From IMG/VR virus record IMGVR_UViG_3300037400_004242: a stretch of 64,000 nucleotides of DNA. One strand, written 5' to 3'. Position 1 is the first letter of the stretch. Every line of letters begins with the position of its first letter. The translations under genes were made by a program, and so were the position numbers. Shown one piece after another: positions 1,338 to 56,293 of this stretch. The stretch is from a virus (Duplodnaviria > Caudoviricetes). Below the pieces are notes generated by a model. The model saw only the letters and a list, made by a program, of their open reading frames with translations. It did no database searches and had not been told where the DNA came from.

Positions 1338-2356
1338 TGGAACATTCTGTAAGAAGTATTTCAAAAGAATTGCAAATACAAATTGAAAATATTTTGAATA
1401 ATAGTTACATTGATGCTCCGTTGTTTGAAAAAGCAGAATCCATTAAAAATGCTTTGTTAAATTGTGTTTCTAGTATAAGTAATTCTGCAAAACAATCTAT
1501 GGATGAAACATATCAAGAATCGAAAGAATATCGTCAATTTATTGATACATATTGTGATTCTCTTGTAGATTGGAAAATGCAGGTATATGTTGTATTAGAA
1601 AAGATAAATAATGAATATCATTCATTTAATAGGAATTTTATTCAAGAATTTATGCAGATTTGTAATCAAGAAATTCAATTTGTGTTTAAAAATTTACAAT
1701 ATATTATTATTCAAGAAAAACAAATACCTGCTAAATTTATATCGCATCATTCAGCTTGTGAAGTCTGTAAGTTTGCAGAACAAAATGAATTTGTAAATAA
1801 AGATTTTTTGTCTTATGATACATGTGATTCTTATTTTGTAAAACAAACGGATATGTTAGAAACAGATAATCTTATATCTAATGATATTCGTATGTATAAT
1901 GTTCCAAAGAAGTTTAAGAAACAAATTGCATCTTTTTATAAGATAGTACATTTAAAATACAAAGATTATATTAAAAATAATGTAAAAATAAAATTTGTAC
2001 AAGAATTTGATTTTGGAGAAAAATATAAAAATATTATAGATTGTATGCAATTCTGTTATGATAGTGAAACGGAAACGAATTACATAAAATTTGAGCCTAA
2101 TAGTTTTCAATATTACATCTTAAAATCTATTTTAAAAACAGGAAATAATTACGACGAAGTAAAAGAAATCTATTATTCTAAAACAAGCAAAGACGTGATT
2201 TTATCAGATGTGAAATTTATTAATTTTTTAGCAGGACAAAGTGCAGAAGATTATTACTATGAAACATTAATCTCATATATTTTGAATCCTGAAAAATTGG
2301 AATCTATAGATAAAGAGATTTATAATTTTTGGTATACAGAAATTGAGAGGGTATAA
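1337..2356 (+). CDS. Hypothetical protein, possibly a minor head (MuF-like) protein
   Basis: Position after the portal; CEVC motif; C-terminal EDYYYETLISYILNPEKL resembles a degenerate zincin-like tail. Confidence 0.3.
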   Translation: MEHSVRSISKELQIQIENILNNSYIDAPLFEKAESIKNALLNCVSSISNSAKQSMDETYQESKEYRQFIDTYCDSLVDWKMQVYVVLEKINNEYHSFNRNFIQEFMQICNQEIQFVFKNLQYIIIQEKQIPAKFISHHSACEVCKFAEQNEFVNKDFLSYDTCDSYFVKQTDMLETDNLISNDIRMYNVPKKFKKQIASFYKIVHLKYKDYIKNNVKIKFVQEFDFGEKYKNIIDCMQFCYDSETETNYIKFEPNSFQYYILKSILKTGNNYDEVKEIYYSKTSKDVILSDVKFINFLAGQSAEDYYYETLISYILNPEKLESIDKEIYNFWYTEIERV

Positions 2357-3942: not shown

Positions 3943-3974
3943 AAAAGAGTATCAATTATTGATACTCTTTTTTT
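3943..3974 (+). terminator. Intrinsic terminator
   Basis: AAAAGAGTATCAA-tta-TTGATACTCTTTT followed by a T-run after the protease gene. Confidence 0.75.
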
Positions 3975-5433
3975 GTATGGGAGATATTATATGGTAAAAA
4001 TATATCAAATTATAGATGTAAACACAAATGAAGTAATTTATGTTGGACAAACAGTACAGACGTTGCAACATAGATTTTCTAGTCACATGAAATACAATAA
4101 AGAACTAATTGAGTATGTTCAAAGAACAAAACATGAAATAAAAATAGAATTAATAAAAGAAGTAAATGATGAAGAGAAATTTATTGAAGAAACACGCTAT
4201 ACAATAGAAGCATATAAAAAGAATAAAAATTTGTTAAATTTAAGATTTGGTCAATTTAGTAAAGAAAAAATACAAAATTATTTAAATTTATCTACAGATG
4301 AAATTTTAAATAGTTTATATCAAATAAAAATGAAATCTTCAAGAAAAGTTAATAAGGAAAAACAATCATTTATATATGTAATATTTGATTGTCCGATTAA
4401 AAAGTATTTGGTTGATAATATTGATAATTTAAATAACCATCAATTGCAAAATATATTTTTATCTTTAATAAAAAAGATTCCAAAAAATATAAATGTCTAT
4501 ATTGGATTTTGTACATGCGATGGAAAGATTTTTGATTCATCTAGTAGTAAAAAGACATATCAAGATAAATTATTACATTCTGATATGATATTAAAAATAT
4601 ATTATAATACATGGAATAACGTTAGAGATATGGCGTTTATTTATGGATTAATTTTATATCAACAAGGCTTTAATTATATTAATACGATGATGGGAAAATA
4701 TCACATAAAATATATTCAGCAAATGATAGATATATTAAAATATCCATCATTGAAAAATTTAATTAAAGATGTTTGTTTTGAAAAAAATAAGAAGTATAGA
4801 ATTGCTATTGCTGAGAATGTTTTAACTAAAGAAAAATATATTTTTAAAACGAAAAACTCCATTGTAAAATCTACAATTCGGTCTTTAGATAATACAGATA
4901 ATATGGATATTCGTAAAAGATATGAGTTATTTAAAACATATGAAATATGTATTTGTAATAATAAAAAAGATGCTATTGAGAAACATTGTTCTATTGTTAA
5001 AGAATATTTAGATAAAGGAGAAAAATTGTATAATAAAAGAATTGGTAACAAATTAACAAAAGAACAAAATGAAAAATTAAATCAATATAGACATGCATCA
5101 TATGAAGCATGGAACAAAGGAAAAAGTTGGTCTGAAGAACATAAAAGAAAATTATCTATATCACATAAAGACCAGAAACCAACAAGAAAATGTATTCAAC
5201 GTTCTATAGAGTGTCATAAAGGAAAAAAGCAAAGTCAAGATACAATTCAAAAAAGAATACAAAGTTTACATAAAAAAGTAAAGTGCATCCCATTAAATAT
5301 GATTTTTGATAGTGCAAGAGAAGCTGGACAAAAATTTGGATTAAAAACGAAAACAATTCAACAAGCAATAAAGCGTGGAACATATTGTGGAGAATATAAT
5401 AATATTAAGTTGAAATGGGAATATGTGAAATGA
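3973..5433 (+). CDS. GIY-YIG homing endonuclease with NUMOD3-type DNA-binding repeats (start probably 3991)
   Basis: KIYQI...IYVGQT...RFSSH N-terminus; AWNKGKSWSEEHKRKLSISH repeats; C-terminal HTH (FDSAREA). Confidence 0.75.
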   Translation: MYGRYYMVKIYQIIDVNTNEVIYVGQTVQTLQHRFSSHMKYNKELIEYVQRTKHEIKIELIKEVNDEEKFIEETRYTIEAYKKNKNLLNLRFGQFSKEKIQNYLNLSTDEILNSLYQIKMKSSRKVNKEKQSFIYVIFDCPIKKYLVDNIDNLNNHQLQNIFLSLIKKIPKNINVYIGFCTCDGKIFDSSSSKKTYQDKLLHSDMILKIYYNTWNNVRDMAFIYGLILYQQGFNYINTMMGKYHIKYIQQMIDILKYPSLKNLIKDVCFEKNKKYRIAIAENVLTKEKYIFKTKNSIVKSTIRSLDNTDNMDIRKRYELFKTYEICICNNKKDAIEKHCSIVKEYLDKGEKLYNKRIGNKLTKEQNEKLNQYRHASYEAWNKGKSWSEEHKRKLSISHKDQKPTRKCIQRSIECHKGKKQSQDTIQKRIQSLHKKVKCIPLNMIFDSAREAGQKFGLKTKTIQQAIKRGTYCGEYNNIKLKWEYVK

Positions 5434-25999: not shown

Positions 26000-27922
26000 T
26001 TGTTTAGAGATTTAGTACAAGCTAAATCTCTTTTTTATATAATAAAACAATATAAAGAATGGAGGTATATATTGTTGAAAGATTCATTTTACAAAATGGC
26101 AATCAAAAGGAATCAATCAAAAGAAGCAAATGAATTACGAAAATATGCAAAACGAGAAATTCCGAAAATATTGATTGAAAAAGATGGAGTATATGCAAGG
26201 GATGAATCTTATTTTAATAATCCATTATATCATCAAACAAAATGCATTGAATGTCATAAAACGTTTTTATATAAGTATAAAAATGGAAAAGAACCTCCAA
26301 AATTTTGTTCAACAAATTGTAGACATAAACATAATCGAAAAAAAGTAATAAAAAAATGTATAGTTTGCGGAAATGAATATATAACAGATAGTTGTGACGA
26401 AAAATATGCTCAATTTTGTTCTGAAAAATGTTATCAAGAAGGATTAAAGAAAGCAAAAATTAATAGAACACCAATTTTAACATGCGTTAATTGTGGTAAA
26501 GAATATCCTTTATATACGAATACGAGTGGATTTTATGATTCATATCAATGTGAATGTGAAATGGAAATAAAACGCAATCAAAAAATCCATACTTGTTATT
26601 ATTGTGGGAAAGAATATTATACTAGTTCTAAGAAATCTAAATTTTGTTCTTTTCGTTGTTCATCGAAGCAAATGCGAAAAGATGTTATGTGGAAAAATTT
26701 AAATGAACATAAAAAAGAATATGAAAAATTTGCGAAAAGAAAATTACCATTAAATAACGAAGATGATTTTGAATGGATAGAAAAAAATGGTATATATGGA
26801 AAATCAGAAGAAGACTTTGATTATTTAAGTTACAATCCAAATGCTTTAAAAACTTGTAAACAATGTGGAAGAAAATATATATCGTCGAATAATGAAGATG
26901 GATATTGCAGTAGAAAATGTTTTTATGAATCAAAAAAATCTTATACTATTAAAAAATGTTTAAATTGCGATAAAGAATATTCTATAAACATTACAGATGA
27001 ACCATATTCACAATTTTGTTCTGATGAATGCGAGCAAGATTATTATGAACATATAAAAGAAAAATGTAAAGTCTATGATAGATTGCATAAATGTACATGT
27101 ATAAATTGTGGAAAAGTGTTTTATGATATAACAAATACAAGTGTAGAGTTTTGTTCTTATCAATGTTCTATTGATTTTAATCATAAACAAAAATTAATAA
27201 CTAAAAAATGTAAACAATGTGGTAAAGAATTTCAAACATATAATAATAGCGATTTTTGTTCTACTAGTTGTTCTTCAAAATATCATATAAAACATGGAAA
27301 ACGACCGCCAAAACAACATCATGCTTGGAATAAAGGATTAACTTCCGAAAATTGCAAAATTATTAAACATAATACAAAAAAGCAATCTATTTCTATGAAA
27401 AAAGGGATTGCTTCAGGAAAAATTAAAATGTATTTTAAAGGGAAACATTTGACAGAAGAACATAAAAAACATTGTTCAATTGGAGTCGCAAAAGCAATTC
27501 GAGAAGGTAGAAAACCCGCATTACCAAGATATATTAGTGGATTTTTTAAAGATATAGGACATTATGTTCGCAGTGGATGGGAATATAACTTTGCAAAAAT
27601 ATTAATTTATTTAAATCGTAATTATGAATATGAACCAAGAACGTTTTTAATAGATGGTGGAGAACAAACATATACTCCTGATTTTTATGATAAAGACAGA
27701 AATTTGTATTATGAGGTAAAAGGTTGGTTTCCAAAAGATGAACAAGAAAAATTTAAAAAATTTCGTGAACAATATCCAGATATAAAAATTCATCTATTAA
27801 AAGCTAACAAATTTAAAAAAATCTATTTTTCTTTTAAAGATAAAATCAAGATGTTGCCACTTTTTAATGTCAAAACAACAAAAATCGGAATCTTAAAAAG
27901 AAAAGATTTACAAAGAATTTAA
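26000..27922 (+). CDS. Multi-zinc-finger putative homing endonuclease (PD-(D/E)XK); true start probably about 26074-26096
   Basis: About 8 CxxC..FCSxxC repeats, AWNKGLT motif, RSGWE...YTPDF..YYEVKGW; a terminator-like hairpin overlaps the first annotated codons. Confidence 0.75.
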   Translation: MFRDLVQAKSLFYIIKQYKEWRYILLKDSFYKMAIKRNQSKEANELRKYAKREIPKILIEKDGVYARDESYFNNPLYHQTKCIECHKTFLYKYKNGKEPPKFCSTNCRHKHNRKKVIKKCIVCGNEYITDSCDEKYAQFCSEKCYQEGLKKAKINRTPILTCVNCGKEYPLYTNTSGFYDSYQCECEMEIKRNQKIHTCYYCGKEYYTSSKKSKFCSFRCSSKQMRKDVMWKNLNEHKKEYEKFAKRKLPLNNEDDFEWIEKNGIYGKSEEDFDYLSYNPNALKTCKQCGRKYISSNNEDGYCSRKCFYESKKSYTIKKCLNCDKEYSINITDEPYSQFCSDECEQDYYEHIKEKCKVYDRLHKCTCINCGKVFYDITNTSVEFCSYQCSIDFNHKQKLITKKCKQCGKEFQTYNNSDFCSTSCSSKYHIKHGKRPPKQHHAWNKGLTSENCKIIKHNTKKQSISMKKGIASGKIKMYFKGKHLTEEHKKHCSIGVAKAIREGRKPALPRYISGFFKDIGHYVRSGWEYNFAKILIYLNRNYEYEPRTFLIDGGEQTYTPDFYDKDRNLYYEVKGWFPKDEQEKFKKFREQYPDIKIHLLKANKFKKIYFSFKDKIKMLPLFNVKTTKIGILKRKDLQRI

Positions 27923-29328: not shown

Positions 29329-29339
29329 TTAACGAATGA

Positions 29340-30119
29340 GTCAGTCACCCGACCTCGGCAAAAAGGAAAATTCCCGTCTTTGACGGAGTTGGCAGAGATG
29401 CCCGTGGAATACCGCCCTCTTTTGGGGGCGGGGTGTTCCATGTACTTGTTAGTTGAAACGTGCTTTAGATGCACTTTTAAGTATATTTGTCTATGTTTTT
29501 AGAAGGAGATTTTTCTGTGGAAATAAATGACAAAAATTTTATTAAAAGGAATATGAAAAAAAACGAAACTGATGAATGGCTAACACCAGAATCAGCAGTT
29601 AGCCCTTTAGTTGAACAACTAAGAAATAAATGCTTTAAAACGATTTGGTGTCCGTTTGATTTAGATGATTCTAACTATGTAAAAGTGCTAAAAGAAAATG
29701 GATTCACAGTTATAAATAGTCATTTAGAAAATGGTCAGGACTTTTTTAGTTATGAACCATCTATTCATTATGATGCAATTGTCAGCAATCCACCTTATAC
29801 ATTAAGAAACGAAGTATTAAAAAGAATTTTTGAATTAAATAAACCGTTTGCTTTGCTACTAAATTATAATGGACTTTTTGATAATCAAAAGCGTTTCAAC
29901 CTCTTTAAAGAAAATGGAATAGAGCTTTTTGTATTAAAAGGAAGAACAGGATTTATTAGACGGTCTAATGGTTTTTGTGCAAAACCTTTGTTTCAGTCAA
30001 TCTATCTTTGTCATAATATTTTTGATGAAAAGATTGTATATCAAGATTAATTTTGTCAAACGGTTAAAGTTTTGTTTAGCCCCACGGCTAAAGGCATGGG
30101 CTTTCGTGCCGCAGAGATA
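29340..30119 (+). mobile_element. Non-autonomous IS200/IS605 (IscB-type ends) element carrying a methyltransferase gene
   Basis: Starts GTCAGTCACCC (compare TTCAGTAACCC at 52411); GC-rich hairpins; ends with CCCACGGCTAAAGGCATGGG hairpin; removal restores an in-frame ORF. Confidence 0.65.
29487..30050 (+). CDS. N6-adenine DNA methyltransferase-like protein (start possibly GTG 29517)
   Basis: DEWLTP, IWCPFD, GQDFF, IVSNPPY catalytic motif. Confidence 0.75.
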   Translation: MSMFLEGDFSVEINDKNFIKRNMKKNETDEWLTPESAVSPLVEQLRNKCFKTIWCPFDLDDSNYVKVLKENGFTVINSHLENGQDFFSYEPSIHYDAIVSNPPYTLRNEVLKRIFELNKPFALLLNYNGLFDNQKRFNLFKENGIELFVLKGRTGFIRRSNGFCAKPLFQSIYLCHNIFDEKIVYQD

Positions 30120-30243
30120 GTGAAAATTCCATTGTAAAACGTTTAGCAAAAAATTTTATAAAATAAGAAAAAAAGACAAGTTATTTTTAAACTTGTCTTA
30201 TTTCTTTTATGTAAGTATATTTTAATAAAGAGGAAGTGGAAAT

Positions 30244-43329: not shown

Positions 43330-44637
43330 TTGAAACTTAGTTCAAATACAAAGAAGAAAACTATTTCATTTTACTCATATCATTTAAATCATGAGAAATA
43401 TGAACAGATTGAAAATTTAGCAAAACAAATTCAAGCATATCAAAATTTCATTTCTGAGATTTACTACAACACTTATTTTCAGAAACAAAAGATTTCTTGT
43501 GGTAAATTCATCACAGAAATGAAAATATATCGTGATAAGGAATTTTCCTCTTCATTTTTTCAACAGATATGTAAACAAGTATATGAAAAATATGAAAAGA
43601 AAAAACCTCCAAAACAGCAAGTGGTTTTCAAGAAATTATCCTTTGTTGGTATCAATCTAATGACAAAACCTTTTATTGAAGAAAGCAACAACAAATATAC
43701 AAACGGAATTATCAATTTTAATATACCTAAACAAGGAGTAATTTGTATTCCATTTAGATATTCAAAAAAGTATCATGGTGATTTGTCAGATATTACTTAT
43801 TCCATGACAGGTGCAAACAAATCTCAATTTCAAAAACTGTATACTTGTACATTGTTAGGTAAAGATAAACTAAAAATTACTATTGTCGAGGATGATAACA
43901 GAACATATACTACATCAATCAATCACATCGAAGGTATAGATGTAAATGTAAAACATAACCTTTTACAATGTTCTGATGGATTTTCTGTAGATTATGATAG
44001 AAAATTTGTTACTAAAATTATTAAACAAAGAAAAAAGTATGATAGAATTGTATCTACCAAAATGAAAAGAAACATTGACCATACAATGACTGAAAAACAA
44101 TATCATTTAAGTAAGAAAAATTCACGAAGAAGTATTTCTATGGTGGAACAATGTTTGGTAAAATTATTTAAGCATTGTAATAAAAATGGTATTGACCATT
44201 TAGTTTTTGAAGATTTAGGTAAGTTTACAGGTAGACTAAAAATTACCAACAAAGAATTTGATGTTAACTATAAACGACTAATGTACGCAGTTAAACTTGT
44301 AGATATTAAAAACATTGCAGAACGAATTGGAAAGAAATATGGAATCACAATATCTTTAACCAATCCTGAATATACAAGTCAAGAATGCAGTTGTTGTCAT
44401 CATATTTCTAAAAAGAATAGGCAAACGCAAGAATTGTTTAAATGTGAAAATTGTGGATTTGAATTAAATGCAGACTTAAATGCATCCATCAATATAAAAA
44501 ACAGGATTCTCTCAAACGTTTTGAGAGAATCCTGTCATCAGGAAATTGAACCAAATAAATTCATTCCAATTTACAAGAACTACGAAGAATTTAAAACAGC
44601 ATACATAGAATTAATTAAACAAAATACCGTATCTTGA
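43330..44637 (+). CDS. tnpB: TnpB RNA-guided endonuclease (IS200/IS605 or IS607 type), no adjacent transposase
   Basis: RuvC-I GIDVN, RuvC-II VFEDL, Zn finger TSQECSCC..FKCENCG, RuvC-III NADLNASINI. Confidence 0.9.
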   Translation: MKLSSNTKKKTISFYSYHLNHEKYEQIENLAKQIQAYQNFISEIYYNTYFQKQKISCGKFITEMKIYRDKEFSSSFFQQICKQVYEKYEKKKPPKQQVVFKKLSFVGINLMTKPFIEESNNKYTNGIINFNIPKQGVICIPFRYSKKYHGDLSDITYSMTGANKSQFQKLYTCTLLGKDKLKITIVEDDNRTYTTSINHIEGIDVNVKHNLLQCSDGFSVDYDRKFVTKIIKQRKKYDRIVSTKMKRNIDHTMTEKQYHLSKKNSRRSISMVEQCLVKLFKHCNKNGIDHLVFEDLGKFTGRLKITNKEFDVNYKRLMYAVKLVDIKNIAERIGKKYGITISLTNPEYTSQECSCCHHISKKNRQTQELFKCENCGFELNADLNASINIKNRILSNVLRESCHQEIEPNKFIPIYKNYEEFKTAYIELIKQNTVS

Positions 44638-45934: not shown

Positions 45935-48643
45935 ATGTTAAATAAAGATATAACATTTTCATTAGATAGTTACGATAAGAAAAAATTCAAGCATGAAGTA
46001 TATGACCACAAGGATGTTTTCTATAGTAGAGAATATATTTATAATTTTAAATTTACAGTAAATATAGATAAAAATGAAATGCCAATTAATCATTTAATTA
46101 TTTATCGTAATGGTGAACCATATAACAATTGTAAGATTATACAAGTTGGGAATAAATCTTATGAGGTTAAAGATGATGTATGGATTCGTTATGGAAACAC
46201 ATGTTATGGTGTAGATGTCGTTCTTGAAGGTGGAAAAACATATCATAATTATTTCTATTTGAAAATTTTACAATCATATCAGCCAAATGATATTCGTTTT
46301 ATAAGTTTTGCAACGTATGGATTACATGAAAATTATTCTATGTTGGATGTAATTGCAAACATTCAGACAAAATATCAAATTGATAGAGTTTTATTATATG
46401 AACATATTTGTCCATTGACAGAGATAGATGAAAAAAGTCGTATATCTAAAATAAGTGAAATGAATGAAAGATATGATTCCAAAGAAATTAAATGGAATTA
46501 TTTGGGAAAAATGGATTTAATAAATCATCAATATCGTTTTCGTTATATGTTGTTTGATACGTCATTAACTGAGAATCGTACAGTATTATATAAGGCTGTA
46601 GTCGTAACAACAAATGAAGTTCGTAGAAGTGCAATTATGTCTACCATTATTAAACCTAATACAATGTCTGTTAATATATTTACATATATGAATACAGAAA
46701 CAAAAGAAAGATACGATATATATGGTGGATGTGTAGGACGTATTGATGCAAAAATTGATGAATACGACAATCCTGAATATAATGGCAAGATTTTTCAACT
46801 TTTAATAGATAAAAGAGACGATGAACAAAATTATTTAAAGTTGCTTGTCGGCGATGATTATAAATTTGAAGCAGATAATTATCATGTTGAATATAAAAGA
46901 AAGAAATTTAATCGTGTACAAACAAATCGTGACCCTAATATTTTTGAAATTTATGGTGATGGATTGGCTACAAAAGTTATTAATGAGGAAAGAGATTTAT
47001 ATCGTAGAGATAATTGTAGATTTTTAGTAACTTTATATTGCGGTGAAGATACTTTTGTTTCATTTAAAATTACTCCATTAAATGATAATAATTTGGCTGT
47101 TAACACGAATAAGACAGAAAATAATATTGTAAAATATTCTTATAATGGTGAATCCAAGATTATGGATAAACAATATTTGGATAAGACTGTAGATGTAAAT
47201 GCAATTCAAGGATATTATACATATAATAGAAAAACAGAAAATCTAATTTTTACAAATATTGATACAAAGGAACAACATATTACAATTATTCCTGATAAGC
47301 CAAAAGAATTATTGTTTCAGGAATTTGATTACATTACATATAACGATAAATATTTTTTCTTTGTCAACTTAGATAATAAAGGAATCCATATTACACGTTA
47401 TGATGGCGTTAATATTGATAAAATTGAATATTTTACAGAGATTATTAAGAGTTCATTAGATTGGATAAAGTCTCAGCAAATATTAAGTTTTGATAAAAAT
47501 AATAATTTAAATTTGAAATTTATATCTTCTAATGGCAGTAATTTTTTAAAGAAAATTGTTGTAGAAAATAATGATTTATCAGTTATTGATTATAGTGATA
47601 TGTTAGTAAATGTATTTAATGATATTCGTAAGCAGATGTTAAATTATGTTGATAATTTAAATTCTGTGACCGTTGGAAAAGTCGAATATATTATTAAAGC
47701 ATCAAATGTTTATGATACATTAGAGCATAAATTTGAGGATATGGGATATACGGATTTTAATTTGAAATTTACGACGCAATATTTTACATATCAAATCAAA
47801 TTCCCAATAGATGTTAAATTTTTAAACAAGACAACAAATGTTTATGTTCGTTTTCAAACGTCTATGACTGTTACTTGTAGAGAAGATGTTATTTTTTATG
47901 AGACGAATTATAGCTTAGGAAATCCAAGATTCGATATTGATATTGATAGTATTAATTTAACATATCATTATACAGATAATGGGAAAAATTTAATTCCTCA
48001 AGTTGGGTATGAAAAATTAAATCAAAAATATTTCTTGAAATTTAGTCAACCTGTAAACACATATACAAAAGAAGATTATGCAATTTTTAAACGTTGCGAT
48101 ATATATAATGGTGGAGCTAGTCTTTATAAGATAAATCCCGAAGATGTATATGGAAATGGGACAAAAGAAAAAACATTTAGGTATTCAGATTTATGTAGAC
48201 TACGTATTTTTATGCTAAATTATAAAGAGTACATGATTATGCGTTTTATGGGTGATAAATGCATGATGACAGTTGTTAATGTAGAATTGAAAGAGCAAAT
48301 ATCACAAGAAACTATTACAACAGATATGTATTTCGATAGTTTGTTCTATTTTACGAAAGAACAGCTTGTATCATTAGATGATTTGTTAAGTAGTGCATAT
48401 TTATATGATTCTGTAAAACGAAAAATGTATATTTGTGCATTGAGTGATTGTTATGTATTAGCTGTTGGTGGAACATATGATACATCATTTCATAATATGG
48501 AGAAATCGACTAGTTTAAGTGGTATTCCGTTAGATAATATGAAAACATATTTGTCTGAATATGAATTTAGTTATCCATTAAACATTAAAAATCGTAATCA
48601 TTATTTAAATGATATAGTCTTTAGTGAAGGGGTATATTCATGA
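45935..48643 (+). CDS. Large beta-rich hypothetical protein, possibly structural
   Basis: 902 aa, Tyr/Asn-rich; GAAAGGAG RBS; coupled to rSAM locus II by ATGA overlap. Confidence 0.6.
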   Translation: MLNKDITFSLDSYDKKKFKHEVYDHKDVFYSREYIYNFKFTVNIDKNEMPINHLIIYRNGEPYNNCKIIQVGNKSYEVKDDVWIRYGNTCYGVDVVLEGGKTYHNYFYLKILQSYQPNDIRFISFATYGLHENYSMLDVIANIQTKYQIDRVLLYEHICPLTEIDEKSRISKISEMNERYDSKEIKWNYLGKMDLINHQYRFRYMLFDTSLTENRTVLYKAVVVTTNEVRRSAIMSTIIKPNTMSVNIFTYMNTETKERYDIYGGCVGRIDAKIDEYDNPEYNGKIFQLLIDKRDDEQNYLKLLVGDDYKFEADNYHVEYKRKKFNRVQTNRDPNIFEIYGDGLATKVINEERDLYRRDNCRFLVTLYCGEDTFVSFKITPLNDNNLAVNTNKTENNIVKYSYNGESKIMDKQYLDKTVDVNAIQGYYTYNRKTENLIFTNIDTKEQHITIIPDKPKELLFQEFDYITYNDKYFFFVNLDNKGIHITRYDGVNIDKIEYFTEIIKSSLDWIKSQQILSFDKNNNLNLKFISSNGSNFLKKIVVENNDLSVIDYSDMLVNVFNDIRKQMLNYVDNLNSVTVGKVEYIIKASNVYDTLEHKFEDMGYTDFNLKFTTQYFTYQIKFPIDVKFLNKTTNVYVRFQTSMTVTCREDVIFYETNYSLGNPRFDIDIDSINLTYHYTDNGKNLIPQVGYEKLNQKYFLKFSQPVNTYTKEDYAIFKRCDIYNGGASLYKINPEDVYGNGTKEKTFRYSDLCRLRIFMLNYKEYMIMRFMGDKCMMTVVNVELKEQISQETITTDMYFDSLFYFTKEQLVSLDDLLSSAYLYDSVKRKMYICALSDCYVLAVGGTYDTSFHNMEKSTSLSGIPLDNMKTYLSEYEFSYPLNIKNRNHYLNDIVFSEGVYS

Positions 48644-49692
48644 GCCATGTTTTACAAATTCAAATGACAAATCAATGTAATTTAAAATGTGAATATTGTT
48701 ATATTCATCAAAATAATGATAAAATGTCGTTTGAAATGTTAAAACAACAAATTAAATATGTAAAACAATTATCAAACAGAATAGACGATGATTTTGATGG
48801 AAAATATGATGTTACATATTTTGGTGGGGAGCCGTTAATTGAATATCAAAATATATTAAAATTTGATGAATATTTAAAACAATCATTAAATGTGCAACAT
48901 TCTTTCATTCAAACAAATGGTATTTTGTTAGATAAAGAAAAAATTAAACAATTAAGAAAAAAGAATATTTATATTGGAATTAGTTGTGATGGTTGTAATG
49001 ATAAGAATCATATATATATTGAAAAAATTTTTCAAAATAAATGGTTGCCTGTAGAAGCAAAAATGATGATAAATAAGTATAACGTTTTTGACTTAATGAA
49101 AAATGTTATATATTTTTATCGTCAAGCGATGAAAGTTAATTGTGGAAATTTATATATAGATGTTTCTTTTGTAAAGGACAATACATGGGATAAACATTCT
49201 ATTATAGAATTAAGACAACAATTAAAAAATTTGTATGATTTTATGATGATGAATTATAGAGATTATCATCGTTGGATTGATATTGGATTTGTTAATAGAA
49301 TTTGCGCAAATATTTTGAACAAAAAACGAAATTATATTTGTTTTGCAGGAGTGAATGGATATAATTTAACTCCGGATGGAATTATTTATCCATGTGCTAG
49401 ATTTTATACAAATCATAAATATCCATTGTTTGATTCAAATAGTTATAAATTTTATGATAAAAATATAGATATAATAAAGCATTGGAATCGGACAAAAAAT
49501 GATAAATGTATGAATTGTGTATTGAATCAATTTTGTAATCAAGGATGCTTATATTCTCAAATTAATAACAATGGAATTATTGATATGTATTGTGATGTAT
49601 TAAAGTCATGCTATCATATGGTAACAACTTTGTATAAAACGATGAAAAATGAATATAATGTGAATATATTAAAGAAAGTTGGTAAGATTTAA
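48640..49692 (+). CDS. Radical SAM/SPASM enzyme (locus II, A)
   Basis: CNLKCEYC, YFGGEP, QTNG; CFAG..TPDGIIYPC...CMNC..NQFCNQGC..C. Confidence 0.9.
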   Translation: MSHVLQIQMTNQCNLKCEYCYIHQNNDKMSFEMLKQQIKYVKQLSNRIDDDFDGKYDVTYFGGEPLIEYQNILKFDEYLKQSLNVQHSFIQTNGILLDKEKIKQLRKKNIYIGISCDGCNDKNHIYIEKIFQNKWLPVEAKMMINKYNVFDLMKNVIYFYRQAMKVNCGNLYIDVSFVKDNTWDKHSIIELRQQLKNLYDFMMMNYRDYHRWIDIGFVNRICANILNKKRNYICFAGVNGYNLTPDGIIYPCARFYTNHKYPLFDSNSYKFYDKNIDIIKHWNRTKNDKCMNCVLNQFCNQGCLYSQINNNGIIDMYCDVLKSCYHMVTTLYKTMKNEYNVNILKKVGKI

Positions 49693-50757
49693 ATGGAAAA
49701 ACCACCTATTAGTGTTTCAATAAATATGGGAAGTGCTTGTAACTTTCGCTGTAAATATTGTTTTGAGGTAAAGAATGGTGCAGTTAATGATTCTAAAAGA
49801 CTTCAACAAAAAGTGAAAGAACGAGTTATTGATGTTATTAAATTATTGACTGAAACAAATAAAGTTCGTATTGAATTTTGGGGTGGTGAGCCGACAGTAT
49901 ATTTTGATGACATTTATGAAATTATTGAAGCAACGAAAGCATATGAAGAAGTAACCTATTTTATGTATACAAATGGTTCTTTGGTTGAAAAATATAGTAA
50001 AGAATTGCTTCAAATAAAAAATGATGTTGGGCATCGTTTTCAAGTACAAGTTTCTTATGACTATCATGATTTAAAAAATAATCAACGCATTCAATTGAAT
50101 AAGACAGTTGAAGAAACTGAAAAAATGGTATTAGATGCGATTCATTTTTTTGATGATAATGATTTTTTCTTCGGAACAAAAACAACTTGTACAATGCATG
50201 ATTTAGAAGAGAATTTATTTCATCAATATATGAATTTTGAAAATTTAAATAAAACATTAAAACATAAAGTAAATTTTAATCCAACACCTGATACATTAGG
50301 TGTTGGAAATGTTAATTATAATAAAATAGAAAAACAATTTATTCAATTGTTAAAATATTTTGTTAAAAATAAAAAGTTTGGGAAAACAGGATTCATGTGG
50401 TTTGATATGCCATCTAATGCAGATTGTACAGGTGGAATACATTCGTTTCAAATAGATGTTGACGGCAGAGTTACATATTGCCATGGATGTTTATATAGTA
50501 AGAAAGATTTGTTTTACACTTCTGTATTTGATGATAATTTTCTTCATAAAGTAGATTATAATTATCTTGCAGTATATAGAAAATACAAGAAAAATAGTCA
50601 ATGTTCAGATTGCAATTCACAATTCTGTTTCAGATGTAACGCAATTAATAGTGATGGAAACATAGAAGATTGGGATAAATCAAATATTCCTGATGTTTGT
50701 AAATTATATAATAAAATTTCAGATTATATCCGCGCCTATTACAAAATAACTCATTAA
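49693..50757 (+). CDS. Radical SAM/SPASM enzyme (locus II, B)
   Basis: CNFRCKYC, FWGGEP, YTNG; CTGG..DVDGRVTYCHGC...CSDCNSQFCFRCNA..C. Confidence 0.9.
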   Translation: MEKPPISVSINMGSACNFRCKYCFEVKNGAVNDSKRLQQKVKERVIDVIKLLTETNKVRIEFWGGEPTVYFDDIYEIIEATKAYEEVTYFMYTNGSLVEKYSKELLQIKNDVGHRFQVQVSYDYHDLKNNQRIQLNKTVEETEKMVLDAIHFFDDNDFFFGTKTTCTMHDLEENLFHQYMNFENLNKTLKHKVNFNPTPDTLGVGNVNYNKIEKQFIQLLKYFVKNKKFGKTGFMWFDMPSNADCTGGIHSFQIDVDGRVTYCHGCLYSKKDLFYTSVFDDNFLHKVDYNYLAVYRKYKKNSQCSDCNSQFCFRCNAINSDGNIEDWDKSNIPDVCKLYNKISDYIRAYYKITH

Positions 50758-50819
50758 TTTTACGATGTATTTTATTTTTCTAATAGAATAGGTATTGAAA
50801 AATTTGGAGTTGATAATAT

Positions 50820-52397
50820 ATGGCGATATGTACGGACACAAAATATGTAGAGGGATTTTATCAAATTGTAGAACCTCCACAATTTTTAAAAGACATGTTT
50901 CCAATTTGTAGACCTTTTGGTGACCCCGGTGATGACAAAAGTTATGAATTCGGGAGTAGTTATTGGAGCGGGTTCGATTCTACTTCTCGTGATGAAGCAT
51001 CAAGTCGTGGATTAAGTAATCGTAAAGGTCGTTTAAAAGATTCTTTTAGTGTTACAGATAAAGTTACGAATAAAGATTGGAACTGTGCAATTGTAAAATT
51101 GAAACAAGAATTTGCTATTCGTTGCGGTTTTAAGCATAATTGGATTCCATTTGTAGAACAAACGGGAGATTTTGGATTATCCAATCATTTAGGATATTTC
51201 CGTGATGGTATTAAAGGCGGAAGTGATGGTGATAGTGACCCAACGCAAGGCGAAAAAACGGATATTGTATATCGTAGAGATATGCAAAAAATATACTTAG
51301 ATATTATTCGTTTGCTAGACTATGAAGTTCCAATGTATTCCGTAGAAGATGGAAGCAAAAATCCTCGTTTCCCAGAGTTTAGAGGTATTTTTTCTAATGA
51401 TTATGGTAAAGTTGGGGACTACAATTCTATTTTAAAAGAAATTGTTGATATTGATGATGCTGATAAATTTTTAAAACAAGGGAATAATGTGTTTTTACCT
51501 CCTGATAATAAAGCATCTGAGAAAAAATGGAAATATTTTCATTTAAATGATAATGTTATTGGCTATCCTGGTGAACCAGCTTCTTCTTGTGCAAAATATG
51601 AAGGAAAATTAGAGAGTTTTGGTGATAACTATCCACCTGGTGGTTCAATTAACATTGACCAGCTAAACGATTGGGAAAGTCGTTATACATTAGGTACTGA
51701 TGCATATGATTTTAAAAAAATGACCAAGAAACGTATTTTGCAATTCATTGGTGCGTCTCAACCTTGGTATCGTAAGTCCGATTCATTATTGGATTGGGAC
51801 GATGGTATTTTTATTGATTATTGGCAACCAAAAAGAGATACTGATGATTTCGCATACGCTCAAGAAATAGTTCCTAATACATATTATCCATATGGAAATA
51901 AGGATTATACAGAAGATGGTGGAGCAGGTGGAAAAGAACCAAAGCCATCAGCATTATATAAAGCTGTACAAGAATTTAGAAAGAAATTTATAAATCCTGC
52001 AAAAGAAACTACAGATAATGATTTATTAGTTTCTGCCAAAATTTCAAAAACAGCTACAGTTGATAGAGATTTATATGGTAATCCAATTACACAAACTGTA
52101 GAAGAAGATGCATCATTTTCAGTAGCATATGTTATGAGACATGCTTATACAGAGTTTCAAACGGTAGATAAATATGGCGATGATGGAAAACTAATTAGTA
52201 GAATGACAATCGGCGGTGATAAAATTATCGTTGATGCTAACTCTGTCGCAAATGTGTTTATGAAAACAATAAATAAAATTTCAGATATTTGCGTTTGTAA
52301 CTGCAATTATTGTTCTTGCTTTGGTAATGAAGTTACATGCTTATGCTATGTTGTTAAGGTAACAGGTTGGTGCTATTCATACATGTATGTATATTAA
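50820..52397 (+). CDS. Protein with Cys-rich C-terminus, putative structural protein and rSAM substrate
   Basis: Ends ICVCNCNYCSCFGNEVTCLCYVVKVTGWCYSYMYVY (8 Cys); follows the SPASM pair; Gly/Asp-rich body. Confidence 0.6.
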   Translation: MAICTDTKYVEGFYQIVEPPQFLKDMFPICRPFGDPGDDKSYEFGSSYWSGFDSTSRDEASSRGLSNRKGRLKDSFSVTDKVTNKDWNCAIVKLKQEFAIRCGFKHNWIPFVEQTGDFGLSNHLGYFRDGIKGGSDGDSDPTQGEKTDIVYRRDMQKIYLDIIRLLDYEVPMYSVEDGSKNPRFPEFRGIFSNDYGKVGDYNSILKEIVDIDDADKFLKQGNNVFLPPDNKASEKKWKYFHLNDNVIGYPGEPASSCAKYEGKLESFGDNYPPGGSINIDQLNDWESRYTLGTDAYDFKKMTKKRILQFIGASQPWYRKSDSLLDWDDGIFIDYWQPKRDTDDFAYAQEIVPNTYYPYGNKDYTEDGGAGGKEPKPSALYKAVQEFRKKFINPAKETTDNDLLVSAKISKTATVDRDLYGNPITQTVEEDASFSVAYVMRHAYTEFQTVDKYGDDGKLISRMTIGGDKIIVDANSVANVFMKTINKISDICVCNCNYCSCFGNEVTCLCYVVKVTGWCYSYMYVY

Positions 52398-52410
52398 TAC
52401 AGAAAGGAAT

Positions 52411-52670
52411 TTCAGTAACCCACGAATAAATTCGTGGGATTGTGGTAGAAATATCACAATCCTTTGCTGAATAGCCTAAGTCTTAACTGACTACGTTGTT
52501 ATCGTTATCACACCCTAGTGCGTATGCTTTAACGCTAGGCTCTGTAAAAGTTCTAAGAGGTAGGAACAGTCAACCAGACGTAGACCGATTACGGCAAGCG
52601 ATTATAACATTGGCTAAGAGTAACCAACTCAAGAATAAAGTTATTTATAACTTTAGGAAGGAGGTAGACT
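52411..52670 (+). ncRNA. IscB omegaRNA (HEARO-like)
   Basis: TTCAGTAA pairs with TTGCTGAA; CCCACGAA/TTCGTGGG hairpin; characteristic AGCCTAAGTCTTAACTGACTACGTT and AACATTGGC segments directly upstream of iscB. Confidence 0.8.
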
Positions 52671-52674
52671 TGTT

Positions 52675-53013
52675 ATGTTAGTCTACGTATTAAATAAAAA
52701 TGAAAAACCTTTAATGCCTTGCAGTCCCAGAAAAGCTAGGATACTTCTTAAAGAAGGTAAGGCAAAAGTAATTAGACGAGAACCTTTTACTATACAATTA
52801 CTCTATGGTTCTAGTGGATACAAACAGAAAGTAAATCTCGGCGTAGATGCTGGCAGTAAACATATAGGTTTATCTGCGACTACCGAGAAGAAAGAACTTT
52901 TCGCCAGCGAAGTTAAATTAAGAACTGACATCGTAGATTTATTGTCTACGAGACTTCAGTATAGAAGAAGTAGAAGAAATAGAACTACTATAAGAAGGGG
53001 AGACTTAATATGA
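52675..53013 (+). pseudogene. iscB: Truncated IscB (PLMP domain, RuvC-I, start of bridge helix)
   Basis: MLVYVLNK..KPLMPC.P.KARILLK.GKA, LGVDAGSKHIG, RRSRRNR, then a stop; HNH and RuvC-II/III are absent. Confidence 0.85.
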
Positions 53014-53324
53014 CAATGTATGCAATTATTATAACTTTAGACGCTGATACATTATCTAAAGTATACACAGGAAATAGTATAGCAAGTGCTTATACAGATA
53101 TTGAGGAAATACTAAGAAGTTATGGATTTTCTCATAAACAAGGAAGTGTATATTTTGGAGATGAGGGAATAGACGCTGTTCATACAGTTATTGCAGTACA
53201 GAAACTATCAAAAAAATATGATTGGTTTGTACCAAGCGTACAAGATGTGCGAATGATTAGAATAGAGGAAGATAGTGATTTGATGGTGGCGATTAGATTT
53301 GCATATTTGGAATCCAATAAGTGA
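53010..53324 (+). CDS. vapD: VapD-family (Cas2-like fold) protein
   Basis: MYAI..LD...AY.DI...L..YGF...QGSVYFG...WF..SV.DVRMIRIEE.SDL. Confidence 0.85.
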   Translation: MTMYAIIITLDADTLSKVYTGNSIASAYTDIEEILRSYGFSHKQGSVYFGDEGIDAVHTVIAVQKLSKKYDWFVPSVQDVRMIRIEEDSDLMVAIRFAYLESNK

Positions 53325-53448
53325 ACAATATATGTATTCTAAGCCTGTAAAAGTATTAGTAAAAAAATATAAAATGGTTAATAGAAAGGAGGAGCGTTGT
53401 TTCCTCCCATGGTTAAAACCATGGGAGGAAACAACGCAAAATATATGA

Positions 53449-53715
53449 ATGGAGAATAAAACTTTAACAGAAGAAGAAAAAAAAGATTTTATGGAAAAAA
53501 TGGCGAATATAATTAATTATATGGAAGCCACAAGAAATATTATTTATCCTATGGATAAGATATTGTATCAAACAATTAATAATATTTTATCAATGTATAT
53601 GATTAGTTTAGGAAGAAAAGTTGGTATGGAATATGAAGAACTAGAAAAAAAGTATTCCAAAGATGAATCTGAAGTTGATGATATTATTGATAAAATTAGT
53701 AAGGAGACAGAATAA
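53449..53715 (+). CDS. Hypothetical protein (continuation of the rSAM locus II operon)
   Basis: Its apparent original RBS (AGAAAGGA, 52401) lies on the other side of the IscB element. Confidence 0.55.
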   Translation: MENKTLTEEEKKDFMEKMANIINYMEATRNIIYPMDKILYQTINNILSMYMISLGRKVGMEYEELEKKYSKDESEVDDIIDKISKETE

Positions 53716-54353
53716 TGGGAAAACAAATGTTATTTTTTTGCGGAATAATAACAATTAATAATGTTAATTTTTTGGTAAATCCTTTTACAAAAATTGAGGG
53801 TGAACCTGTTCTTCTGAGCAGAGATGCATATGTTCAGCTAACTGCTGAAGCATATGATTTCGTCACAAATGTTTTAGATTTATCACATAGAGAACCACAA
53901 TGCAAAGTTTATATTGAATGTTCTCCAACAGAAAAAGAAATTTTTGACAGAGACGATTTGAAAATTAATGAAGAGTTAAATAATGAGTCTCCTGAAGATA
54001 AACTTGATGCATATAAAGAAAAATGTATTCGTTTGATGAATGAAATGATTTCAAATCAACTTATGATTTCTAATTTTGAATTATATCATTTCTTTAAATT
54101 GAATCATTATCTTGAATCTAAAGGTTTCTTTATTACAGATGAAAATCGTGAAGAAAAGTATTTGGAAGTTATTAATAGTGGTGATGCAGAAGCACTTGAG
54201 AAACTTTCTGAATATTTGGATTCATTAGATGAATTTAATGCGATTGATGATATTTATATGCGTTATAAGGAATTTAAAGACAAGGTTAAGGTTGCTAAGA
54301 ATGAACAAGAAATTAAAGATGCATACATCGCCATGTCAAAAGCAACATTTTAA
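53715..54353 (+). CDS. Hypothetical acidic helical protein (possible fibre assembly chaperone)
   Basis: Translationally coupled ORF; function guessed from position only. Confidence 0.45.
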   Translation: MGKQMLFFCGIITINNVNFLVNPFTKIEGEPVLLSRDAYVQLTAEAYDFVTNVLDLSHREPQCKVYIECSPTEKEIFDRDDLKINEELNNESPEDKLDAYKEKCIRLMNEMISNQLMISNFELYHFFKLNHYLESKGFFITDENREEKYLEVINSGDAEALEKLSEYLDSLDEFNAIDDIYMRYKEFKDKVKVAKNEQEIKDAYIAMSKATF

Positions 54354-55149
54354 TATTGTTTATATGACTAATGAATCATATTTGTTTCAAACATATGTTT
54401 CTATTAGTTCATTGAAGATGAATAAACATCATAACATCAGTTATGATGTTTATTTGTTATGTATTGAAATGCAAGATATTGGAGATATAAAAAAATTAAA
54501 TGATGAGGATTTTTGTATTCATTCAATTTATATTGAACGTAATATTTATAGATATGATGCTAATGCAGGTGTTGTATATTATAAAATGATTTTACACGAA
54601 TTATTGGATGTGGATACAGTATTTCATATTGATTCAGATACAGTTGTTATTGATGATGTTTCAAGTATTTTTGATTATAATTTAACCGATTATTTTTGTG
54701 GTGGTGTAAAAGATAAAATTAAAGGATTGAAATACTTTAATGCAGGAAATGTGTTGTTAAATTTAAAAAAAATACGAGAAACATTATATGATAATGAATA
54801 TACAATGTATGATTATTTTTGGCAATTAGATAAAGAATTAAGAGATAAAAAAGGATTCCTTTGGGAACAAGATGTTTTTAATAAGGCTTTTGAAAATAAG
54901 ATTTTATATATTAATTATGGCTATAATTTTTTGGTGAATACTTATAGCCAATATAAGTTTAATGATTTAAGTAGAATTTATGGAGAAAAAGTAGATTATA
55001 AAAAAATTAAAATATTACATTTTGCAAGTCATCCAAAACCGTGGATAAAAACAAATTTATTTGGTGAAATTTGGAAAATGTATGCAGAAAATAAAGTAAA
55101 TAAAGAATTAGAACAGAAAATATTGAGGGTGGCGTGTCGTGAGTATTGA
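54229..55149 (+). CDS. Glycosyltransferase family 8 (start probably 54319)
   Basis: HIDSDTVV (DxD), YFNAGNVLLNL, EQDVFN, ILHFASHPKPW. Confidence 0.9.
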   Translation: MNLMRLMIFICVIRNLKTRLRLLRMNKKLKMHTSPCQKQHFNIVYMTNESYLFQTYVSISSLKMNKHHNISYDVYLLCIEMQDIGDIKKLNDEDFCIHSIYIERNIYRYDANAGVVYYKMILHELLDVDTVFHIDSDTVVIDDVSSIFDYNLTDYFCGGVKDKIKGLKYFNAGNVLLNLKKIRETLYDNEYTMYDYFWQLDKELRDKKGFLWEQDVFNKAFENKILYINYGYNFLVNTYSQYKFNDLSRIYGEKVDYKKIKILHFASHPKPWIKTNLFGEIWKMYAENKVNKELEQKILRVACREY

Positions 55150-56293
55150 TAGAAAACAAGCATTATTAATGCAATTTATGTTAGGTTCAAATTTAAAAGT
55201 AAAAAAAAGAGATAAAGATAAAATATTAGTTACTTGTAATATAGCTACCCGTCAAGGACACCAATATTTATGGGGAGCAGAAAAATATTGTATGAAAATT
55301 TGTCATCAGTTGGCAAAAAAATATGAAGTACATTTGTTTCAACAAGCAGAAAATTTTTTAAATTGTAATGATATTATTGTGCATCCACATATTTATAATT
55401 TTTTTTCTCGTTCAAAATTATTAGAAGTTGCTTTTAAGGCTTCTATGGTACAACCAAGATGCATTTTATGTAATGCAGGAACAGGTTCACAAGCGTTATT
55501 TTGGACAATTGTAGCAAAAATTATTGATGTTCCAATTATTATGTTTTTACATAATGAACCAACTTTTATAAAAGATACAATTTCTCCTGAATGGGGTATG
55601 TATTATGTTCGTGGTCAAACAATTATGAAAGATAAAGATATGCTGTATGATTTCGTCTTAGATTATTGTGATGAATTAGCATTTTTATTACCGCAATATA
55701 TAGATAGTAAATATAAAGATAAAACTTATGTGTATCTTAATTGTATTGATATTCCTAACAATGTAGATGTTGAATCAGATAGAAAAAATTTGTTGTATGT
55801 TGGTAGAATTAATACCGATGTTAAACGTACACAAATATTGTTAGATTGGGTTAAAAATACAGAATATGCTTGTAAAGTATGTGGCTATAATTATCAAGAA
55901 GATGGGTATCTTGATATGAATCAATATCAAAAATATAAAAATATAAATTTTTTAGGATACCATAAAAATATGGATAACATTTATCGTGAATCTAACGTAT
56001 TAGTTATTCCATCTTTATATGAAGGACTTCCAACAGTTGCATTAGAAGCATTATCTTATGGTATACCAATTGTTGGATTTAAAGAATGTAAATCTATGAA
56101 TGATATTATTCAGGATGGATATAATGGATGGCTAGTAGATAATAACTTTTCAGATGTTATGGAAAAAGTAATGTCTATAAAAGATATGAGACAAATTCGT
56201 AAGAATTGCTTAAATGAATCGAAAAAATATGATATAAATAATATTATGAAAACAATTTTTAAATCAATAGAGGATGTTAAATGTGAAGATTAA
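55139..56293 (+). CDS. Glycosyltransferase family 4 (GT-B)
   Basis: GAEK, LYVGRI, VIPSLYEGLPTVALEALSYGIP. Confidence 0.9.
   Translation: MSIDRKQALLMQFMLGSNLKVKKRDKDKILVTCNIATRQGHQYLWGAEKYCMKICHQLAKKYEVHLFQQAENFLNCNDIIVHPHIYNFFSRSKLLEVAFKASMVQPRCILCNAGTGSQALFWTIVAKIIDVPIIMFLHNEPTFIKDTISPEWGMYYVRGQTIMKDKDMLYDFVLDYCDELAFLLPQYIDSKYKDKTYVYLNCIDIPNNVDVESDRKNLLYVGRINTDVKRTQILLDWVKNTEYACKVCGYNYQEDGYLDMNQYQKYKNINFLGYHKNMDNIYRESNVLVIPSLYEGLPTVALEALSYGIPIVGFKECKSMNDIIQDGYNGWLVDNNFSDVMEKVMSIKDMRQIRKNCLNESKKYDINNIMKTIFKSIEDVKCED

Follow-up and report, generated by a model that had tools for sequence, protein, structure and literature searches.

We analyzed a 64,000-nucleotide stretch of a tailed-phage genome (Duplodnaviria, Caudoviricetes; virus record IMGVR_UViG_3300037400_004242), hereafter the window, and identified between two phage genes a 1,034-bp degenerate IscB/omegaRNA insertion sequence in which most of the iscB nuclease gene has been replaced by a vapD-family gene of foreign origin (Table 1). 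This locus is probably a decaying IscB element that captured vapD once, by illegitimate recombination, with vapD doing for this phage what it does for the donor lineage. An earlier reading of the locus, made from the sequence alone, had described a hollowed-out IscB element loaded with vapD and keeping both of its ends, and this description is borne out by an empty site, a second allele at the same site, a left junction defined against a related element (contig L119), and a group of donor contigs. The functional roles that the same reading had proposed, a cargo-carrying transposon or a coupling of a mini-IscB with VapD, were not supported, as the loaded form was found at only one site and the pairing has no comparative support.

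Table 1. Features of the element and its flanks, with positions in the window.
Feature	Position	Strand	Evidence and remarks
Guide-supplying flank, 16 nt just outside the element	52395..52410	+	Holds the 525-aa gene's stop codon and the ribosome-binding site (RBS) of the 88-aa gene; read from the sequence; same 16 nt plus ATGA in L114
Whole element, degenerate IscB/omegaRNA insertion sequence with vapD	52411..53444	+	1,034 bp; empty site in L114; start shared with L097, L119, and L111
omegaRNA (HEARO) scaffold	52411..52628	+	Rfam RF02033, 102.3 bits versus gathering score of 83, model positions 1-211 of 211; 12-nt deletion near 52545
Truncated iscB open reading frame (ORF), 112 aa	52675..53013	+	Pfam RRXRR 1-108 of 174 (E 6e-37); NCBIfam IscB 1-107 of 314
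Foreign cassette, 387 bp	52989..53375	+	vapD RBS, vapD, and 51 nt of native 3' flank; nucleotide identity to donor contigs
vapD-family gene, 104 aa, Cas2-like fold	53010..53324	+	NCBIfam VapD E 1e-14; profile versus 6ZI0; AlphaFold2 (AF2) and Foldseek
Authentic element 3' end	53376..53444	+	Last 13 iscB codons (from 53375), stop in hairpin loop, end hairpin 53394-53437, 7 nt more
ATGA, target/transposon-adjacent motif (TAM), outside the element	53445..53448	+	7-9 nt after the hairpin in the window, L097, L119, and L120
Downstream 88-aa phage gene	53449..53715	+	ORF list; RBS-ATG spacing of 8 nt in the empty site L114

Boundaries of the element and alleles at its insertion site

The boundaries of the element are exact because one sister contig carries the unoccupied site and because the flanks of two sister contigs, L111 and L114, are 96.5 to 100% identical to those of the window. 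Contig L114 (JGI, 38 kb) is 100% identical to positions 52290 to 52410 and picks up again at 53445, so that AGAAAGGAAT is followed immediately by ATGA and then by the start codon (ATG) of the 88-aa gene. The sequence-only reading had predicted this joint from a deletion of 52411 to 53444 and had suggested looking for the empty site in related phages; L114 is that site, and the joint occurs in nature. It also bears out the deduction that the insertion lies between the RBS and the start codon of the 88-aa gene, which the element has parted from each other.

A third state of the site is found in L111 (ENA, 74 kb), which carries a differently deleted copy of the same element without vapD. This copy keeps ∼130 nt from the start of the omegaRNA, then ∼70 authentic codons for the IscB C terminus, which end in FRKTWLIERRSVVSSHG and the stop codon, and then the same end hairpin. 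Since L111 represents another internal deletion at the same site, the element is decaying in this lineage, and the L111 and window alleles together indicate that a full-length IscB element once occupied the site and took different decay routes in different genomes. Alleles at the site were read in the two sister contigs, and the flanking genes were recorded on about 60 to 80 contigs.

The allele series bears directly on an explanation in which an IscB element inserted upstream of a resident vapD and a later deletion, reaching from iscB to the vapD RBS, brought the two together, leaving vapD outside the element. One insertion and one deletion would suffice for this history, and vapD is resident in other phages. 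However, the 525-aa and 88-aa genes of L114 have no vapD between them, L111 is an element without vapD at the same site, and authentic iscB 3' codons and the end hairpin stand downstream of vapD in the window. Already contradicted by L114 and L111, a resident vapD is very improbable.

The window belongs to a large phage whose genes recur on contigs of up to 348 kb and have PHROG matches to a phage DNA helicase, endonucleases, and auxiliary metabolic genes. A blastn search of phage GenBank records with positions 50800 to 55200 returned no match. Scans of IMG/VR found no VapD relative among its proteins, neither the perfect end hairpin nor the right junction of the cassette, and only distant relatives of the 525-aa neighbor (≤57% identity over 44 residues), which indicates that the phage lineage is absent from the collection scanned. 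A scan of JGI metagenomes with 21 nt of the left flank returned, besides the empty site in L114, six chance or unrelated matches (L112, L113, and L115 to L118).

The 3' end of the element and its adjacent motif

Downstream of vapD, the sequence before and within a palindrome reads WLIERRSVVSSHG and a stop codon in one frame, and the sequence-only reading had taken these residues for the last codons of iscB. The L111 allele ends likewise after its ∼70 IscB codons, and its tail matches that of the window except for a 5-nt internal loop. Because the L111 tail follows authentic IscB codons, the tail in the window is the real iscB 3' end. The same end architecture, with ERR plus 6 to 7 residues and a stop codon in the hairpin loop, is common to the related elements at three other sites, namely L097 (which is full length, 416 aa), L119, and L120. 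The hairpin shared by the related elements has an outer stem, an internal loop of 4 to 5 by 5 nt, and an inner stem and is followed by 7 to 9 nt and ATGA; its stems vary between elements yet stay paired through compensatory changes.

The perfect 21-bp palindrome reported earlier is present as described (arms at 53394 to 53414 and 53417 to 53437), starting 70 bases after vapD. It occurs nowhere else in the window and in 0 of 100 shuffles. We add that its perfect pairing is a derived state. The 5-by-5 internal loop conserved in L111, L097, and L119 is closed in the window by a change of TTTCC to AGGAA in the 3' arm, so that the palindrome is perfect here and imperfect in those three elements. 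Several copies of one hairpin of the IscB-end type, without a long upstream ORF, were seen on L101 to L105 (IMG/VR contigs, 198 and 327 kb) and look like gene-less remnants, dispersed over giant phage contigs, that are similar to PATEs (palindrome-associated transposable elements, which are gene-less IS200/IS605 derivatives). An orphan IscB 3' end (FYIERRIRGSSHD, a stop codon, and a hairpin) adjoins the start of a TnpB-like ORF at L106:2977-3120 (minus strand).

Meers et al. (2023) placed the IscB omegaRNA scaffold at the right-hand end of the transposon, with the guide outside, and the TAM next to the left end; by this layout, the hairpin end of the present element is its left end in the IS605 convention and the omegaRNA end is its right end. 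In each of four related elements, all at different sites, the hairpin is followed by ATGA, and the motif is also present at both empty sites, namely L114 for the window and L081/L088 for L097, where the insertion is again directly 5' of ATGA. The GstIscB TAM is TTCAT (Meers et al. 2023), and the window reads ATGAA, its reverse complement. The earlier suggestion that ATGA stands where an IscB TAM is expected agrees with both the four related elements and the GstIscB TAM on the other strand. In a wider comparison, ATGA followed the IscB stop codon in 29 of 58 distinct IscB tails versus 21 of 56 control windows, and IscB clades differ in end geometry; the TAM assignment therefore rests on the four close relatives, the two empty sites, and the literature.

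A foreign cassette in place of the center of iscB

Homology to the iscB of L119 ends at 52988, homology to the donor contigs runs from 52989 to 53375, and homology to the tails of L111 and L120 continues from there, with ∼900 bp of iscB replaced by a gene-sized cassette whose first base lies 21 nt ahead of the vapD ATG. The left junction is a blunt join; at the right junction (53375/53376), the vapD 3' flank and the iscB tail share 2 nt (AT) of microhomology. At the DNA level, the cassette is 87 to 93% identical to L081 to L083, L088, and L090 to L100 and 97% identical to L089, and nothing in the remainder of the window resembles the donor contigs. These contigs are phage-like, with PhoH, RNA ligase, DUF3310, and exonuclease genes. 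Across the ∼20 contigs read (five clusters, with vapD relatives that are 83 to 94% identical), the gene order is 56 aa, 150 aa, vapD, 45/57 aa, 95 aa, and 81 aa, and no iscB adjoins vapD in any of them. Three donor-type contigs (L096 to L098) carry their own full-length IscB 3.7 kb from vapD, a distant relative of the IscB in the window. The vapD gene has passed between two otherwise unrelated phage lineages.

The 1.2-kb Logan contig L089 combines the donor left context (150 aa and vapD) with the right junction of the window and ends within the palindrome. It differs from the window at 10 positions, every one of them in the first 300 nt, and the last 160 nt are identical. The contig is either a true recombinant of two vapD copies or a chimeric unitig; its right junction is shared by descent and is not a second event. 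As L089 resembles a mosaic of donor and window-type vapD, it might suggest that the loaded element itself is an assembly chimera of two phages sharing sequence. However, the loaded arrangement is present in both a 223.6-kb JGI contig and a 26.6-kb Logan contig (SRR12668996), with the same gene lengths, the same spacing, and identical neighbors, and both junctions lie in unique sequence, with no repeat common to the two phages there. Its presence on a second assembly makes a chimera unlikely, and on all of these observations, we give this explanation very little weight.

The loaded unit was found only beside the 525-aa and 88-aa neighbors, at one site in one phage lineage and in two assemblies. 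The sequence-only reading had called for a search for other loci with an omegaRNA, a truncated iscB, and vapD, and this search yielded none beyond this site; none of the ∼20 vapD contigs, as noted above, has an adjacent iscB. A tblastn search with VapD against 80 IscB loci from IMG/VR gave no match, showing that none of those elements carries vapD.

What remains of iscB and the omegaRNA

In the truncated ORF, codons 1 to 104 belong to iscB and encode the PLMP motif, RuvC-I, and the start of the Arg-rich helix, while the final 8 codons come from the foreign cassette. The sequence-only reading had recognized these same features, and the partial matches to Pfam RRXRR and NCBIfam IscB agree with it. 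The TGA stop codon of the stump overlaps the ATG of vapD (ATGA overlap). These 104 N-terminal codons and the 13 C-terminal codons are all that remains of iscB in the window. A complete IscB is absent, since the matches cover N-terminal parts of RRXRR/IscB only, with no HNH domain, and the other parts of the element account for all of the 1,034 bp. No intact IscB or TnpA was found in the 64-kb window. With the nuclease domains absent, no activity is expected of this copy, and the element should be unable to cut empty sites or to home by itself.

The closest relative of the element is L119, which sits at another site and is 92.7% identical over positions 52411 to 52988. The two differ at only 2 of the 312 nt of iscB coding sequence that the window retains (99.4% identity). 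This near identity indicates that the truncation is recent, so that an open reading frame and a good omegaRNA are expected even without selection.

The iscB of L119 (L119:4001-6387) is itself broken up: codon ∼194 is followed by a 1.09-kb insert that carries a 370-aa LAGLIDADG ORF, and both halves of the gene remain; there is no group I intron match at the Rfam gathering score. L119 is an example of the nested selfish elements (homing-endonuclease or intron insertions) in phage nuclease genes, and it is like the window in that another gene breaks into an iscB of the same family. The two differ in that the insert in L119 adds sequence and leaves both iscB halves in place, whereas in the window 900 bp of iscB was lost and the inserted gene is not a selfish one. 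A further IscB element, at L120:253-3149, has iscB split into 166 and 212 aa, lies directly downstream of a TnpB gene, and has a RAGATH-18 RNA at 1423 to 1483. The IscB genes of L048, L057, and L059 align over their full length with the L097 IscB but have an in-frame stop and may reflect stop-codon recoding or pseudogenes.

The omegaRNA is the single HEARO RNA that Rfam identifies in the window. It lies directly upstream of iscB, with the ORF starting 46 bases after it, and covariation supports 25 of 57 predicted pairs across six relatives, with most helices kept. The sequence-only reading had called it intact looking. In favor of that view, the match spans the full Rfam model above the gathering score and is about equal in score to that of the full-length element in L097. 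Against it, the score is 9 to 31 bits under those of L119, L120, L001, and L011, and an alignment with these four relatives shows that the 12 missing nt are the 5' strand of a stem that all of them have. In L001, a Pistol ribozyme (1379 to 1454, minus strand; 65.6 bits versus a gathering score of 34.5) was seen 3.3 kb from an IscB element.

The captured protein is a phage VapD

Family profiles and structure prediction both confirm the earlier assignment of the captured gene to VapD, with its Cas2-like fold. The protein matches NCBIfam NF041506 (VapD) with an E value of 1e-14 and 54.7 bits, under the equivalog cutoff of 100. A profile built from its clade matches six solved VapD sequences with E values of 1e-14 to 6e-09, among them 6ZI0/6ZI1 of Haemophilus influenzae (1e-14 for 6ZI0), 3UI3 of Helicobacter pylori (HP0315), and 9KAN of Campylobacter jejuni, and finds 1,150 relatives in a library of 1.84 billion proteins. 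The AF2 model has a predicted local distance difference test score (pLDDT) of 86.9; its nine best Foldseek matches are all VapD chains, with template modeling (TM) scores of 0.73 to 0.77, and Cas2 chains come next. The match to CRISPR_Cas2 (PF09827) reaches 23.3 bits, under the gathering score of 23.8, and there is no cas1 or CRISPR array beside vapD in the window or in the donors.

In HP0315, residues D7, L13, S43, and D76 are important for RNase activity (PMC3351183). Equivalents of L13, S43, and D76 are retained in the window protein, and Thr9 aligns with Asp7 of both H. influenzae VapD (HiVapD) and HP0315. The sequence-only reading had noted that the first catalytic Asp appeared to be replaced, and the Thr at this position agrees with that; the replacement, however, is no special trait of this element, since the whole phage clade shares it. 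Of 24 close phage homologues, 23 have Thr or Val at this position, which makes the loss of Asp7 a clade trait that predates the capture. Asp is present there in 109 of the 150 nearest cluster representatives, in which an FDLD motif is usual. Asp11, two residues further along the same strand, is invariant. Pairwise ratios of nonsynonymous to synonymous substitution rates (dN/dS) between the vapD of the window and those of the donors are 0.2 to 0.8.

Family matches of the called neighbors suggest no VapX/VapW-like antitoxin in the window or in the donors, in agreement with the earlier remark that no VapX was seen. Downstream of vapD, the donors have a small ORF, which in the window is interrupted by the junction. 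The protein thus resembles the VapD toxins (H. influenzae VapXD, H. pylori HP0315, and C. jejuni VapD-VapW) in sequence family, in fold, and in its L13, S43, and D76 equivalents, and it differs from them in the Thr at Asp7, in the lack of a visible VapX/VapW-like partner, in being phage borne, and in scoring below the equivalog cutoff.

These properties allowed us to weigh the proposal that the stump and VapD form a two-protein RNA system, in which the PLMP/RuvC-I stump would still bind the omegaRNA and would cooperate with the Cas2-like VapD, the pair acting, for instance, as a decoy or as an RNase guided by RNA. The ATGA overlap couples the two ORFs translationally, the stump ORF is open and nearly identical to those of functional relatives, and the fold of VapD is Cas2-like. 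But the pairing occurs nowhere else, the other vapD relatives have no iscB neighbor, and the stump is without most of the RuvC fold, the HNH domain, and the TAM-reading domain. With a truncation as recent as the near identity to L119 indicates, the open frame says nothing about selection, and Asp7 is missing from VapD throughout the clade. The ∼20 contigs with a resident vapD and no adjacent iscB leave the partnership without comparative support, and a mini-IscB/VapD complex is unlikely; we would assign the proposed two-protein system only a slight chance of being correct.

Proposed history of the locus

We propose that a full-length element landed at a site ending in a guide-matching flank and ATGA. 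Later, ∼300 central codons of iscB, which would have encoded the rest of the bridge helix, RuvC-II, the HNH domain, RuvC-III, and the TAM-reading domain, would have been swapped for the 387-bp piece of another phage lineage. The single blunt junction and the single 2-nt microhomology point to illegitimate recombination, and co-infection is the presumed setting. The vapD gene would now be transcribed with the upstream phage genes, with its translation coupled to that of the 112-aa iscB stump via the ATGA overlap, and for the phage it is probably an ordinary accessory gene, as it is for the donors. The loss of the conserved internal loop from the end hairpin and of 12 nt from the omegaRNA are signs of wear, and the omegaRNA and the iscB stump are most likely recent relics rather than parts of a new machine.

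Five points weigh against this history. The element keeps its two ends and almost all of its omegaRNA. L119 has, at another site, an iscB part that is 99.4% identical, so a cognate IscB might be available in trans to move the element. The two cassette breakpoints flank a complete gene and its RBS, a hint that a working vapD was selected for within the element. L089 has the same right junction in a different left context. Finally, the frequency of the vapD allele and its occurrence elsewhere are poorly sampled, with two sister contigs at the site.

Several of these points would be expected of a nonautonomous, PATE-like cargo element, moved as a unit by a cognate IscB and/or a Y1 TnpA supplied from elsewhere in the phage, from a co-infecting phage, or from the host, with vapD spreading into empty sites through RNA-guided cutting and repair. 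The element has precise ends and an existing empty site, its guide and target motif are in place, its omegaRNA scores above the Rfam gathering threshold and like that of the full-length L097 element, and its cassette is neatly the size of one gene. Members of the same IscB family are present at other sites (in L119, with the near-identical 5' part, and in L120), the donors L096 to L098 have their own IscB, and PATEs mobilized in trans are known for IS605 elements. Set against this, the loaded unit is at one site only, neither an intact IscB nor a TnpA lies in the 64-kb window, the end hairpin has lost the internal loop that is conserved in L111, L097, and L119, and one strand of an omegaRNA stem is missing. 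We consider mobilization as a cargo element possible but unlikely. In a stronger form of the idea, a nuclease-less guide-RNA cassette, with its own omegaRNA and its two ends retained, would borrow IscB from a related element of the same phage or of a co-infecting one and drive vapD into the empty sites of competing phage genomes, which would amount to a natural RNA-guided gene drive; this seems to us more doubtful still.

The element is like the GstIscB-type IscB/omegaRNA elements (HEARO, ISC, OMEGA; IS200/IS605; Meers et al. 2023) in having an omegaRNA scaffold at one end with a guide from the outside flank, a subterminal hairpin at the other end, insertion exactly beside a 4- to 5-nt motif, and the same orientation as the upstream gene; by the same likeness, empty sites would be targets of the ribonucleoprotein (RNP). 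It differs from them in retaining only 104 plus 13 iscB codons, in the foreign gene that fills the gap, in the lost hairpin loop and 12 nt of omegaRNA, and in its giant phage host with no TnpA nearby. With PATEs, it has in common that both ends are kept, that no working transposase or nuclease is present, and that movement could occur only in trans, and the L111 allele is close to the PATE state. Unlike PATEs, the window element carries a passenger ORF that is complete, along with a near-complete omegaRNA and the stump of iscB, and it is single copy as far as has been seen.

Other features of the window

The window has a second OMEGA-type element at 43330 to 44637 (plus strand), a 435-aa TnpB-like gene with a Pfam Cas12f1-like TNB domain and a PHROG match to "transposase." Large ORFs at 26000 to 27922 and 3973 to 5433 (plus strand) have PHROG matches to HNH/endonuclease I and to homing endonuclease, and the region is rich in selfish nucleases. 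A small methyltransferase-like ORF at 29335 to 30125 is flanked by GC-rich hairpin islands; we considered this locus as a second cargo-bearing shell and rejected it, as Rfam searches up to an E value of 10 gave no HEARO or other credible RNA. Directly upstream of the element, positions 48640 to 52397 (plus strand) hold two adjacent radical-SAM genes (350 and 354 aa) and then the 525-aa protein, whose last ∼35 residues are very Cys rich (CVCNCNYCSCFGNEVTCLCYVV). The radical-SAM pair and the Cys-rich protein could be a phage peptide-modification module.

Implications

IscB elements, their TAM logic, and their gene-less PATE derivatives are already known. An IscB shell with a foreign ORF was not found in the literature searched; a full-text search for IscB together with "passenger gene" returned no paper. 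The analysis also brings to light a phage VapD clade without the canonical catalytic Asp. At one phage locus, the empty, internally deleted, and cargo-substituted states form an allele series that shows how OMEGA elements decay and that their shells can acquire foreign genes. Should movement of the shell in trans still be possible, it would be the first natural omegaRNA-bearing element with a passenger gene found in the literature searched and a model for RNA-guided spread of cargo among phages.

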